Shown: positions 5,313-13,826 of the stretch, piece after piece
How positions within the stretch are numbered: the stretch's first letter is position 1
How the letters are laid out: each line of letters starts with the position of its first letter
Assembly: GCA_964354805.1 (NCBI GenBank)
Contig: CAYHBD010000007.1
Coordinates: 1-30,044, forward strand
Reading direction: 5' to 3'
Source of the DNA: an uncultured archaeon
GTDB taxonomy: Archaea; Iainarchaeota; Iainarchaeia; Iainarchaeales; GCA-2688035
Length of the DNA: 30,044 bases
Program-made: the position numbers and the translations under genes
The notes under the pieces: generated by a model
What the model saw: only the letters and a program-made list of their open reading frames with translations
Told to the model about the DNA's origin: nothing
Databases searched by the model: none

Positions 5313-5356
5313 TTTTCTTTTGGTACAGATTTTCTTTTCCTAAAAGAAAATCTGTA
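5313..5356. repeat. Family B hairpin repeat at the tRNA-Arg 3' end
   Basis: TTTTCTTTTGG then the perfect inverted repeat TACAGATTTTCTTTT-CCT-AAAAGAAAATCTGTA (5324-5356). Confidence 0.85.
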
Positions 5357-5357
5357 A

Positions 5358-5449
5358 CGGACCCGGAGGGATTCGAACCCTCGACCTACTGCTGACCCCC
5401 TTTGGAAAGGTAGAAGGCAGTCGCCCTATCCAGGCTAGGCTACGGGTCC
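5358..5449 (-). tRNA. tRNA-Arg(TCT) with 17-nt intron at 37/38 (5394-5410)
   Basis: GGACCCG/CGGGTCC acceptor, ACTGC/GCAGT anticodon stem, GAGGG-TTCGAAT-CCCTC T arm; BHB motif with CTTC/GGGG helix and TAC/TCA bulges; no CCA. Confidence 0.95.
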
Positions 5450-5494
5450 ATTATAATAAAATAATGCGTAAGGGGAATTAAAAGTTTTGTTTTT

Positions 5495-9795: not shown

Positions 9796-9879
9796 AAAGC
9801 CATTTTCTTTTGATACAGCTTTTCTCGCGAAGCCACTTTTCTTTTGATACAACTTTTCTTTTTCTAAAAGAAAAGTTGT
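9796..9879. repeat. Family B tandem units plus hairpin at the tRNA-Leu 3' end
   Basis: Two AAGCCA(C)TTTTCTTTTGATACA units; the second continues into ACAACTTTTCTTTT-TCT-AAAAGAAAAGTTGT, ending on the discriminator base. Confidence 0.85.
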
Positions 9880-10008
9880 GCGGGAGGGCGGATTCGAACC
9901 GCCGAAGCCACTAAGGCACCAGCCAACTGCAGCTTTTTCCCAAGGCTTTTTTGCCTTGCAAAAAAGGCTTCCTCAAGCTGGCGGAATAGACCGCTATCCG
10001 ACTCCCGC
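9879..10008 (-). tRNA. tRNA-Leu(GAG) with 46-nt intron (9925-9970)
   Basis: GCGGGAG/CTCCCGC acceptor, CCAGC/GCTGG anticodon stem, long variable arm, GGCGG-TTCGAAT-CCGCC T arm, A discriminator; mature length 84 nt. Confidence 0.92.
9933..9970. repeat. Family A hairpin repeat inside the tRNA-Leu intron
   Basis: CTTTTTCCCAAGGCTTTTTTGC-CTT-GCAAAAAAGGCTT. Confidence 0.9.
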
Positions 10009-10605: not shown

Positions 10606-10850
10606 CGCGGGGGACGAGATTCGAACTCGCGCTTCCGTGAGGAAACACGCTGATTGGAATTTGGGTTTCTTTTCCCAACAGCCTTTTTAACAAAAAGGCT
10701 GGCGAAAAAAGTTCCTTTTCCCAAGGCTTTTTTGCGTGAGCAAAAAAGGCTTAGCCGTTAGGCATTTTTTCCTTTTCTTTCCCAAGGCTTTCTTTTTCTA
10801 AAAGAAAGGCTTTTCCAGGCGTGCGCATTAGACCGCTCTGCCACCCCCGC
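10606..10850 (-). tRNA. tRNA-Ser(GGA) with 161-nt intron (10652-10812)
   Basis: GCGGGGG/CCCCCGC acceptor, CACGC/GCGTG anticodon stem, CT-GGA-A|A loop, long variable arm, GCGAG-TTCGAAT-CTCGT T arm, G discriminator; mature length 84 nt. Confidence 0.9.
10666..10812. repeat. Three family A hairpin repeats inside the tRNA-Ser(GGA) intron
   Basis: Units at about 10666-10702, 10714-10752 and 10771-10812, each TTTCCCAA followed by a hairpin ending AAAGGCT(T/G). Confidence 0.9.
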
Positions 10851-10950
10851 ATTAAGGAAAAGAAGGCAGGGAAAAGCCTTTAAAGGAAATTTATTTTTGC
10901 AGTGGCGAAAGCGAAATAATAAAAAGGGGGAAAGGATTATTATTATTGCA

Positions 10951-12065: not shown

Positions 12066-12185
12066 GAAGCAATTTCTTTTGATGCATTTTTTCCTGGCGA
12101 AGCCCATTTTCTTTTGATGCTTTTTTTGTAGCGTTTTTTTCTTTTAATGCACGTTTTCTTTTTTTCCTAAAAAAAGAAAAAGTGC
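12066..12185. repeat. Family B tandem units plus hairpin at the tRNA-Ser(TGA) 3' end
   Basis: Three TTTCTTTT(G/A)ATGC units; the last runs into GCAC-G-TTTTCTTTTTTT-CCT-AAAAAAAGAAAA-A-GTGC (12149-12185). Confidence 0.85.
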
Positions 12186-13056: not shown

Positions 13057-13138
13057 TTTTGGGAAAAGCAGGCGCTCTATGCGATTGCGAAGCAATCGCC
13101 CTTTTCCCAAGGCTTTTTTCCCGTAGGAAAAAAGGCTT
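13057..13138. repeat. Composite palindromic element containing a family A repeat
   Basis: TTGGGAAAAG...CTTTTCCCAA outer arms, inner GCGATTGC-GAA-GCAATCGC (13081-13099), family A unit 13101-13138. Confidence 0.85.
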
Positions 13139-13826
13139 ATGCTTTTTGCAGCAAATAGTTTTTTTCAATTTGCAGGAAACCTGTTTTTGCCTTTGCTTCA
13201 ACAAAGTTCAGCAGGTTGTTGAATGCAATGAAAGAAATGCTGATTCCTGCCGCGAATGCGATTCTTTCAGTTGCTGTTATTGGGATAAGCATTGCCCATT
13301 GCTCTGCCGTCATTGGAACAGTCCAAGCAAAAATAACTGAGCCTATTGCGTGGGCAGTGAATGTTGCCCCAAGGCTGCGCAGGAACAATCGCTTGCTGAA
13401 CACTTTTGCAATCAACGGGATTGTCCAGAAGAGCGAGTAATACCATGCTTCCCTGCCAACAGGGTGCAAAATGAACAAGGCAATGCATGCGGTTGGAATT
13501 GCCGCGCTTGCTTTTGAGAAATTGTTCTTCTTGAGGAAAAATGCGAAGTAGAATGTTGCAAACAGCATTGGCAGCAATCTTAAAATATTCAGCAATTCAA
13601 TTGCTTTTCCTGCAATCGCGAAATCCAGCAATTCAGCAAAGAAAACAGAGGCAATTCCAATAACCGGACCGAGAAAAGCGCCTGCTATCGGGCCAATGAA
13701 CTGGAAGAAGGTAAAGTATTGGGCCGTGCTGCCAACAAGCTGAGAGAAATTGATTCTGCCGGCGATTAAAACAACTATAGTGAATAGAACAAAGAAAACT
13801 ACCTTTTTGAAATAGCTGTTTTGCAT
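13137..13826 (-). CDS. Integral membrane protein, ECF transporter S-component-like
   Basis: 229 aa from ATG 13826 (GGTGG RBS); about 6-7 TM helices; GPIAGAFLGPVIG resembles the S-component signature; directly downstream of folC. Confidence 0.65.
   Translation of the reverse strand: MQNSYFKKVVFFVLFTIVVLIAGRINFSQLVGSTAQYFTFFQFIGPIAGAFLGPVIGIASVFFAELLDFAIAGKAIELLNILRLLPMLFATFYFAFFLKKNNFSKASAAIPTACIALFILHPVGREAWYYSLFWTIPLIAKVFSKRLFLRSLGATFTAHAIGSVIFAWTVPMTAEQWAMLIPITATERIAFAAGISISFIAFNNLLNFVEAKAKTGFLQIEKNYLLQKA

Follow-up and report, generated by a model that had tools for sequence, protein, structure and literature searches.

What is the body of an unusually long archaeal tRNA intron made of, and how was it put together? 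The question is raised by the gene for tRNA-Ser(GGA) in a 30,044-nucleotide (nt) stretch of contig CAYHBD010000007.1 (hereafter the window), which belongs to an uncultured member of the Iainarchaeota. Its metagenome-assembled genome (MAG), termed G000, comprises 1.38 Mb in 49 contigs and is 88.5% complete; labels such as C2, C8 and C11 designate contigs of this source genome. Archaeal tRNA introns are reported to range from 11 to 129 nt, with medians of 12-25 nt (2014 review, PMC4090602), and the one in this gene has 161 nt. Our analysis led us to a reading that we consider probable—namely, that this is a protein-spliced intron of the bulge-helix-bulge (BHB) type, located at position 37/38 of a functional tRNA-Ser(GGA), with a body built by the insertion of mini-repeats at the DNA level. 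The repeat in question is present in about 100 copies in the source genome. Coordinates given without a contig label refer to the window, and both the gene and its intron lie on the minus strand.

Anatomy of the tRNA-Ser(GGA) gene and its intron

The first-pass annotation of the window had described a 161-nt intron within a tRNA-Ser gene, and several lines of evidence bear this out. The Rfam tRNA model matches 10606-10850(-) with 33.3 bits (gathering score, 29) and places a 163-nt insertion in the anticodon loop, while ARAGORN, with introns allowed, returns a tRNA-Ser(GGA) having an intron of 161 nt. Since intronless orthologues read ...CTTGGAA/AGCGTG... (the slash marking the junction), the splice junction falls at 37/38 and the intron at 10812-10652. 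Joining exon 1 and exon 2 restores a 7-nt anticodon loop, CUGGAAA, identical to that of the intronless orthologues; the resulting tRNA is complete and of the serine type, with G73 and a long variable arm. The gene was missed by ARAGORN with default settings and by Rfam with default filters and the gathering threshold over the window; it was recovered only with the intron option or with permissive filters. ARAGORN made a second ‘Ser(gga)’ call at C42:85452-85543, which we read as an Ile(GAU)-type gene with an intron. This second call lacks the long variable arm, which leaves the gene in the window as the sole credible Ser(GGA) gene of the assembly. A TTTAAAG box upstream of it (Table 1) appears promoter-like, by analogy with the TTTAAA(T) boxes that precede other tRNA genes of this genome.

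The intron holds three hairpins (Table 1), each literally followed by TTGGGAAA, and the first unit starts at intron nt 1—both as the first-pass annotation had it. A unit covers ~40 nt: its hairpin pairs a pyrimidine tract with a purine tract across a short loop, and an 8-nt linker of constant length leads on to a second purine tract, the mirror of the first. In unit 1, the tail AAAGAAAA is a perfect mirror (8/8) of the 3' arm, offset by 8 nt. Other parts of the earlier description had to be revised. The spacers, said to be unique, are not so throughout: the first holds a small hairpin that is also seen after other copies of the repeat, and the second is the tail of unit 3. Unit 3 itself had been described as the most divergent unit. 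It is not a decayed copy but an inverted insertion, canonical only on the plus strand and nested in the linker and tail of unit 2, where it sits between two copies of TTGGGAAAAG (10669-10678, with that of unit 2 at 10715-10724). It represents a separate subfamily, which recurs in the same nested arrangement at C8:14025-14082 and C47:28126-28180. The intron contains no C/D boxes and matches no Rfam family besides tRNA, the best sub-threshold score being 20.8 bits against a gathering score of 54 bits.

The 3' end of the intron had been proposed to supply the partner for the splice motif, and we found the same: a unique stretch of 17 nt closes the intron, and its UUCCA pairs with U33-A37 when the cloverleaf is enforced. 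A near-canonical BHB can then be drawn, comprising the 5-bp anticodon stem, a UC/A 3' bulge, a central helix and an AA/A bulge (slashes marking the splice sites). The central helix has U33-A, G34-C and G35-C pairs and a single mismatch, C32.A. Past the 5' bulge, the outer helix amounts to only 2 bp, unless the hairpin of unit 1 substitutes for it. Free-energy folding favours a 5-bp UGGAA/UUCCA helix lacking the 5' bulge, and the pre-tRNA fold is more stable than 200 of 200 shuffles (z = -3.8). In the orthologue of genome G021, which carries a 91-nt intron ending in AAAUUCCAACA, the central helix is made of four perfect pairs. The machinery expected for splicing is also encoded in the source genome, with one EndA gene at C11:9474-9947 (N-terminal and catalytic Pfam domains) and an RtcB gene at C9:56487-57794. 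The EndA protein has its nearest counterparts in M. kandleri and M. jannaschii and resembles alpha4-type enzymes. From these features we infer that the 161-nt intron is spliced from the pre-tRNA.

Table 1. Features of the tRNA-Ser(GGA) locus and other repeat-bearing sites in the window
Feature	Position	Strand	Remarks
tRNA-Ser(GGA) gene (pre-tRNA)	10606..10850	-	Rfam RF00005; ARAGORN intron option; exons conserved in intronless orthologues
5' exon	10813..10850	-	Ends ...CCUGGAA (anticodon GGA, A37)
Intron, 161 nt	10652..10812	-	At canonical position 37/38
3' exon	10606..10651	-	A38, anticodon stem, long variable arm, T arm, acceptor, G73
TTTAAAG box	10878..10884		Minus strand; ~30 nt upstream of tRNA-Ser(GGA)
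Unit 1 (sense)	10773..10812	-	Intron nt 1-40; AAGCC, UUUCUUUU, loop AGA, AAAAGAAA, linker GCCUUGGG, tail AAAGAAAA
GGAAAAAA	10765..10772	-	Intron nt 41-48
Small hairpin UGCCUAACGGCU	10753..10764	-	Intron nt 49-60; GCC-loop-GGC kind, found after many repeat copies
Unit 2 (sense)	10715..10752	-	Intron nt 61-98; hairpin AAGCC-U6GC-UCAC-GCA6-GCCUU (10723-10752), then UUGGGAAAAG (10715-10724)
Unit 3 (inverted)	10679..10714	+	Intron nt 99-134; CAGCC TTTTT AAC AAAAA GGCTGGCG AAAAAA GTTC
Second UUGGGAAAAG	10669..10678	-	Intron nt 135-144; exact 10-nt direct repeat of 10715-10724; flanks unit 3
Unique 3' end AAACCCAAAUUCCAAUC	10652..10668	-	Intron nt 145-161
tRNA-Leu(GAG)	9878..10008	-	46-nt intron (9924-9969) = one repeat unit + 10 nt
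Unit past tRNA-Leu(GAG)	9837..9874	-	ACAGC.../AUC subfamily; 4 nt past the tRNA 3' end
Unit after tRNA-Ser(UGA)	12134..12183	-	Directly after the tRNA; U5CU7 / A7GA4 / 8-nt linker / A4GA7 mirror tail
Unit after tRNA at 5357-5450	5313..5350	-	Directly after the tRNA
Repeat copy not in a tRNA gene	13096..13141	-	

A dispersed repeat family with mirror tails

The material from which the intron is made recurs throughout the genome. The core GCCTTGGGAAA has 60 exact copies in G000; an nhmmer profile built from these copies yields 91 matches genome-wide, and a scan guided by structure picks out 109 hairpins that have a tail to match. In the window, the core occurs eight times with at most one mismatch, against 2.0 expected. 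An uninterrupted stem of 6-9 bp between two GCC boxes is found in 54 of the 60 exact-core copies, and, because these perfect stems span 19 different arm sequences, the pairing has been kept while the letters changed. The outer AAGCC/GCCUU stem keeps a fixed C.C mismatch. Beyond the source genome, the 14-mer AAGCCTTGGGAAAA is present in 18 of 22 other genomes of the family (1 to 111 copies each); among 18 genomes representing other families of the order, only 3 have it, and a reversed control of the pattern gives 0-1 matches. Most copies in G000 lie outside tRNA genes, and those between protein genes show no orientation bias (26 vs 22, on crude open reading frame calls, which make the assignment of copies to the inside of reading frames unreliable). 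A role as terminator or 3' untranslated region was considered for the copies outside tRNA genes and rejected, as their orientation to the neighbouring genes is about even. Outside tRNA genes, sense units also come in arrays of two or three, at C10:7044-7194 and C8:7035-7106, where each unit is followed by a second small hairpin, as inside the Ser(GGA) intron. We found no publication describing this repeat element in the literature on tRNA introns, triplex repeats, DPANN archaea and Iainarchaeota tRNAs.

A distinctive property of the unit is the relationship between its hairpin and its tail. For a pyrimidine arm of the form T(n)CT(m), with the purine arm A(m)GA(n), the tract after the linker reads A(n)GA(m)—that is, the tail is a mirror of the 3' purine arm of the hairpin and not a copy of it, at a constant spacing of 8 nt. 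The (n,m) combinations observed were (3,5) in seven cases, (4,3) in three, (4,2) in two, and (3,4), (4,5) and (4,6) in one case each. Two initial scans for mirror tails were swamped by chance hairpins of 5-6 nt and were superseded by a stricter one, in which the asymmetric tracts of G000 gave 17 mirrors, 5 ties and 5 direct copies. All five ‘direct’ cases have T6CC-type arms, in which the constant GGG linker plus an A-run mimics the arm; with these artefacts excluded, the mirror-to-direct count is 17:0. In the Ser(GGA) introns of other MAGs, the units have different tracts (5,3,2; 4,5,2) and different, longer linkers (10-17 nt), and the scan gave 9 mirrors, 2 ties and no direct copy. Moreover, perfect mirror tails were present in 28 of 38 units, compared with 10.7 +/- 2.1 (maximum, 19) when the tails were shuffled among hairpins; these mirror counts are inflated by copies related by descent, and at least a dozen distinct tract patterns still obey the rule. 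The possibility that the tail serves as an alternative Watson-Crick partner of the pyrimidine arm was rejected, since it mirrors the 3' arm instead of copying it. In locus L008/L126 (genome G015, Candidatus Iainarchaeum archaeon DeMMO3_25), the first unit of the Ser(GGA) intron has a loop insertion of ~50 nt, and its arms, TTTTCTCT and AGAGAAAA, and mirror tail, AAAAGAG, still match despite this insertion.

A homopurine mirror repeat adjoining its own duplex is the classical signature of an intramolecular triplex. The units show the class II tract order, with a pyrimidine tract, a complementary purine tract and an antiparallel third purine tract, and their first loop measures 2-4 nt. In the scheme set out for bacterial repeats (PMC4666352), the tRNA strand would represent the class II purine motif and the complementary strand the pyrimidine motif, which is based on T.A-T and C+.G-C triplets; the complementary-strand form of the unit consists of T.A-T with one C+.G-C. 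A triplex of the purine motif reportedly does not form in RNA (PMC4666352); the mirror constraint is therefore unlikely to act on the pre-tRNA and fits DNA or the antisense strand. The pattern suggests that a triple helix may form, most plausibly in single-stranded or supercoiled DNA and not in the pre-tRNA.

The repeat is also strongly linked to tRNA genes in a way that depends on orientation. Of the 44 tRNA genes predicted in G000, approximately 15 are interrupted by an intron of 36-161 nt that opens with a sense unit. Such a first unit never stands in antisense, and 0-6 nt separate it from the 5' splice site. A sense unit lies 1-6 nt past the 3' end in 13 of the 44 genes, and an antisense unit stands at the 5' end of three or four. 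In every tRNA-associated case, the hairpin faces the tRNA helix end and the tail points away from it. This placement could reflect a structural target of the inserting process, or it could be that only such placements leave a precursor that can be spliced and folded. Additionally, C-interrupted T tracts prevail among tRNA-associated units (18:2, compared with 13:42 elsewhere, mostly plain T5-7; the copies are not independent), a bias for which targeting by a particular subfamily, or else selection against transcripts with long U-runs, could be responsible.

Some further observations concern the other tRNA genes of the window (Table 1). The gene for tRNA-Leu(GAG) was missed by default ARAGORN and by Rfam at the gathering threshold. 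The tRNA at 5357-5450(-) is called Glu(UUC) by default ARAGORN and Arg(UCU) with a 17-nt intron when introns are allowed, and its Rfam alignment has a 19-nt insertion after CUUCU. The three window units located after tRNA 3' ends present T4-7-C-T4-7 tracts where a terminator would be expected.

Origin of the array

If the intron is made of repeat units, did these multiply in place or arrive separately? Units 1 and 2 agree at 30 of 40 positions (75%). In contrast, unit 1 has full-length matches of 93% identity at C11:2311 and C2:29864, and unit 2 has one of 97% at C38:326-362. Both units are thus closer to copies elsewhere than to each other, and local duplication does not account for the array. 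An insert nested between two copies of the same motif, as in the case of unit 3, was found in three host units in G000 and in one in genome G016, and the host hairpins differ. At the C8 locus, the expected mirror tail of the host, AAAAGAAAA, resumes only after the insert, which indicates that the insert split a pre-existing unit at the linker/tail junction. Two other copies have flanking repeats of unrelated sequence, of 8 nt (CAGCGGAA, C16:40778) and 7 nt, respectively. Flanking repeats of at least 6 nt accompany 13 of 69 copies, compared with 7.6 expected, with 6-nt matches mildly enriched over the control. For unit 1, the GGAAAA of GGAAAAAA equals the GGAAAA spanning the end of exon 1 and intron nt 1-2, a weak hint of a possible 6-nt target duplication. 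The insertion of a small element, suggested in the first-pass annotation, agrees with the copy number of the repeat, with the greater similarity of the units to copies elsewhere than to their neighbours, and with the 10-nt repeat flanking one of them. These data fit copy-and-insert with short duplications and motif-mediated recombination alike.

To place the intron in an evolutionary context, we turned to its orthologues. The neighbouring CorA gene was matched in only two other genomes of the family, so orthologues were collected by BLAST of the pre-tRNA; a degenerate exon-1 pattern fetched 239 loci, mostly bacterial tRNA-Ser, of which ~20 archaeal loci were useful. A comparison of this kind had been proposed as a way to detect polymorphism in unit number, and it revealed just that—with introns from 0 to 228 nt that differ in the number and content of their units. 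Seven family genomes have a near-identical tRNA-Ser(GGA) with no intron, and seven other genomes have long, unit-bearing Ser(GGA) introns; together with a relative lacking units 2 and 3, they provide filled and empty sites that are compatible with gain or with loss. Besides the intronless genes, 21 distinct Ser(GGA) intron alleles of 21-228 nt were gathered from family genomes, public MAGs and metagenomes: in 17, a sense unit stands within a few nucleotides of the splice site as the first element; of the rest, one has just an inverted unit by the 3' site and three have no unit. A single genus, g5, contains intronless genes, a 91-nt intron with one unit and a 144-nt intron with several.

Closer relatives of the window gene hint at the order of events. 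G021 and the metagenome locus L168 combine the window's 3' end with a single unit at the 5' end. Comparison with metagenomes, likewise proposed at the outset, added a 134-nt groundwater contig of a related organism in which unit 1 is joined to the 3' end via 12 other letters, skipping units 2 and 3. Because these relatives share a single 5' unit and the same 3' end, unit 1 and the 3' partner look like the older core, and units 2 and 3 like later internal additions. The first-pass annotation had raised the possibility of polarised insertion, with the most divergent unit furthest from the 5' site; a polarity with the oldest unit in that place is not supported, and the relatives, keeping the 5' unit and the 3' end, suggest the opposite. 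One public run contains a 151-nt contig that matches 10676-10826 without a difference and argues against an assembly chimera, although it may come from the source sample. Other exact pieces from public runs cover the exon junctions. The contigs in these runs are short, most of them coming from other repeat copies or from relatives, and none of those listed spans the whole stretch.

The collected loci showed further features. The last intron unit is inverted in L125, L145, L071, L007 and L199 (T tail, linker, T arm, loop, A arm), and in these inverted units the hairpin lies a few nt from the 3' splice site, a mirror image of what the sense unit shows at the other end of the intron. Three genera have the exon-1 allele GCGGGGGTGGCAGAGCGGTCTAATGCGCACGCCTGGAA in common (L001, L006, L007, L008 and L010), all with long introns, and L009, L012, L016 and L018, from one of those genera, have a different exon-1 allele and no intron or a 91-nt intron. 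This pattern could reflect the transfer of an intron-bearing gene or the persistence of two old alleles. Finally, the public records of L085, L102 and L103, contigs on which this archaeal tRNA-Ser gene lies, bear the names of bacterial or thaumarchaeal MAGs (Chloroflexota CSMAG_1825, Chloroflexi AB_1215_Bin_59 and Thaumarchaeota AB_1215_Bin_64), probably through errors of binning or labelling.

Drawing these results together, the reading that we prefer is one in which a family-specific mini-repeat inserts at the DNA level, so that the intron body would grow by successive arrivals; the copying route of the repeat unit is likewise inferred. Two sense units and one inverted unit would have entered in this way, the inverted one landing in the linker and tail of unit 2. 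Only the last ~10 nt of the intron would be tRNA-specific, and their pairing with the anticodon loop would set both splice sites. The single EndA of the genome would make the cuts, and RtcB would then ligate the exons to each other and, probably, the intron into a circle. On top of this, we put forward, more tentatively and as a possibility that we would not bet on, that the unit is a still-active, structure-coded mobile DNA, which may copy itself via its fold-back triplex, home to the ends of tRNA helices and both inflate and found BHB introns. Its targets would be the 5' splice site and the tRNA 3' end in the sense orientation, and, in antisense, the 3' splice site and the tRNA 5' end. If so, no fewer than three independent insertions would be preserved at the Ser(GGA) locus, one of them nested in the repeat's own TTGGGAAA motif.

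Several observations weigh against the preferred reading. With regard to splicing, the motif has a C.A mismatch and an outer helix of only 2 bp, while the sole EndA found resembles substrate-strict types; the alpha4-type and M. kandleri enzymes are described as strict about their substrates in a passage of PMC5829648. The T-runs of the intron (UUUCUUUU, U6, U6 and U5) also resemble the T-rich stretches that follow tRNA genes in G000. Archaeal transcription terminates at oligo-T, and such runs could truncate the transcript. As for insertion, most copies have no flanking repeat, and the 10-nt repeat around unit 3 could equally stem from recombination at the shared TTGGGAAA motif. No unit-linked transposase was found in a search confined to Y1_Tnp (PF01797), other transposase families not being searched. 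The two Y1 (IS200/IS605-type) genes are flanked by unrelated GC-rich hairpins, so no pairing of the REP/RAYT kind was seen. The triplex raises difficulties of its own: the definition of intrastrand triplexes used for ITxF/PIT elements allows loops of 1-6 nt between tracts (PMC4666352), and the second spacer exceeds it, with 8 nt here and 10-17 nt in other MAGs. Furthermore, the outer 5-bp stem and the fold-back of the tail are mutually exclusive, and the mirror register loops out the 8-nt linker. Lastly, neutral insertion leaves unexplained why first units are placed so strictly, in the sense orientation and 0-6 nt from the 5' splice site.

This last point keeps alive a different account, in which the hairpin units would be RNA modules selected in the pre-tRNA—either as an outer helix or clamp of the splice motif, or as an insulator of the tRNA fold—and the array would be functional as such. 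The regular position and orientation of the first units in ~15 introns and 17 of 21 alleles, the several alleles with an inverted last unit and its hairpin by the 3' splice site, the elements that abut tRNA ends (sense at 3' ends, antisense at 5' ends) and the bias towards C-interruption, which would spare U-runs in transcripts, are all in its favour. Yet the same tRNA does without an intron in seven family genomes, most copies are located outside tRNA genes with no preferred orientation, units 2 and 3 touch neither splice site, and flanking direct repeats point to insertion of DNA. The mirror tail, moreover, is kept in intron copies despite having no accepted RNA structure on the sense strand (PMC4666352), and we regard selection for RNA modules as quite unlikely. 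A process acting on DNA of another kind would be recombination or replication error provoked by triplex or hairpin DNA, through which the repeat would spread and vary, the 10-nt repeat being microhomology at TTGGGAAA. Bacterial intrastrand triplex repeats have been tied to local genome rearrangement (PMC4666352), the nested insert is in each case bracketed by two copies of a motif native to all host units, and the scarcity of flanking repeats and the outcome of the Y1_Tnp search are as such a process would have it. The 8-nt (CAGCGGAA) and 7-nt flanking repeats of unrelated sequence are nevertheless hard to obtain by motif-mediated exchange, and ~100 dispersed copies at unrelated loci need a copy-and-insert process; on balance, we judge this explanation unlikely.

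Two simpler accounts fare considerably worse. The presence of three similar hairpins inside 161 nt would be expected from in-place tandem duplication or slippage of a single ancestral hairpin. Periodicity of the Tandem Repeats type is absent, though, the identities of units 1 and 2 to copies on other contigs (93-97%) exceed that between them, and unit 3 is inverted and from another subfamily, so that an origin by duplication in place is highly improbable. A pseudogene, or a chimera assembled from collapsed repeats, might be suspected in a metagenome-assembled genome of 49 contigs, where repeats invite mis-assembly, and for a gene that default tRNA finders miss. Against such an artefact stand the exons, which form a complete Ser-type tRNA matching its orthologues, and the status of this gene as the only credible Ser(GGA) gene in the assembly. 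The independent 151-nt contig, identical across units 1-3, the exact pieces over the exon junctions and the seven other genomes with long unit-bearing orthologous introns leave very little room for it.

Known systems and significance

The intron of tRNA-Ser(GGA) shares with other BHB tRNA introns its position at 37/38, a 3' end that pairs with the anticodon loop, two drawable 3-nt bulges and the presence of EndA and RtcB genes. It differs from them in length (161 nt, with orthologues up to 228 nt), in the C.A mismatch of the central helix and in a body made of dispersed repeats. The transposed introns of Thermoproteales (Fujishima et al. 2010), as outlined in the review that cites them (PMC4090602), offer a parallel in that related intron sequences occur in many tRNA genes, implying the spread of intron material at the DNA level, as here. 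In those introns, as far as that outline goes, the whole intron with its splice motif is repeated within tRNA genes, whereas here a ~40-nt module, found mostly outside tRNA genes and devoid of the tRNA-specific 3' partner, stacks into arrays and nests. The tRNA-Trp intron with its box C/D guide RNA, known from Haloferax and others (PMC4090602), likewise owes its extra length to a discrete structured module; in contrast, the module of the Ser(GGA) intron has no C/D boxes, is repeated genome-wide and shows no evident guide function.

As a repeat, the unit most resembles the bacterial BoxC, PIT and TM_ECO elements (Hoyne et al. 2000; Holder et al. 2015, PMC4666352), which are also short, dispersed and multi-copy, have the class II tract order with the pyrimidine motif on the other strand, and show no orientation bias to protein genes. 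Those elements are G/C-rich and not linked to tRNA genes, while the archaeal repeat is A/T-rich with one or two G.C positions. The latter has an 8-nt second loop (10-17 nt in relatives) and a strong link to tRNA ends and intron starts, and its triplex is a predicted one. With miniature inverted-repeat transposable elements (MITEs) and REP elements, it has in common a small, non-coding palindromic unit present in ~100 copies, with subfamilies, nesting and some flanking repeats of 7-10 nt. It departs from them in that the inverted repeats constitute the whole hairpin, an extra mirror tract is present, flanking repeats are mostly absent and no Y1 partner was found.

How archaeal tRNA introns are acquired is an unresolved question. 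In a census of Asgard tRNA introns from 2026, neither copying between tRNAs nor mobile elements nor reverse transcription emerged as a general route when tested (bioRxiv 10.64898/2026.10.13.758758). At the locus described here, each unit of an intron body leads back to a dispersed repeat that has near-identical copies elsewhere; a nested insertion with flanking repeats and orthologues free of the intron add to the record, and the question of where intron sequence comes from becomes answerable by comparative population genomics combined with simple biochemistry. The three-way co-variation of arms and tail provides unusually clean sequence evidence for a constrained intramolecular triplex in archaea, intrastrand triplex repeats having so far been described only in bacteria. 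There is also a practical consequence, in that repeat-bearing introns hide tRNA genes: two of the five tRNA genes in the window are missed by default, and one is given the wrong anticodon. The intron records how repeats enlarge archaeal tRNA introns and, perhaps, how they found them—and, should the repeat indeed home to tRNA genes, this archaeal family would be a living system in which to watch tRNA introns arise.

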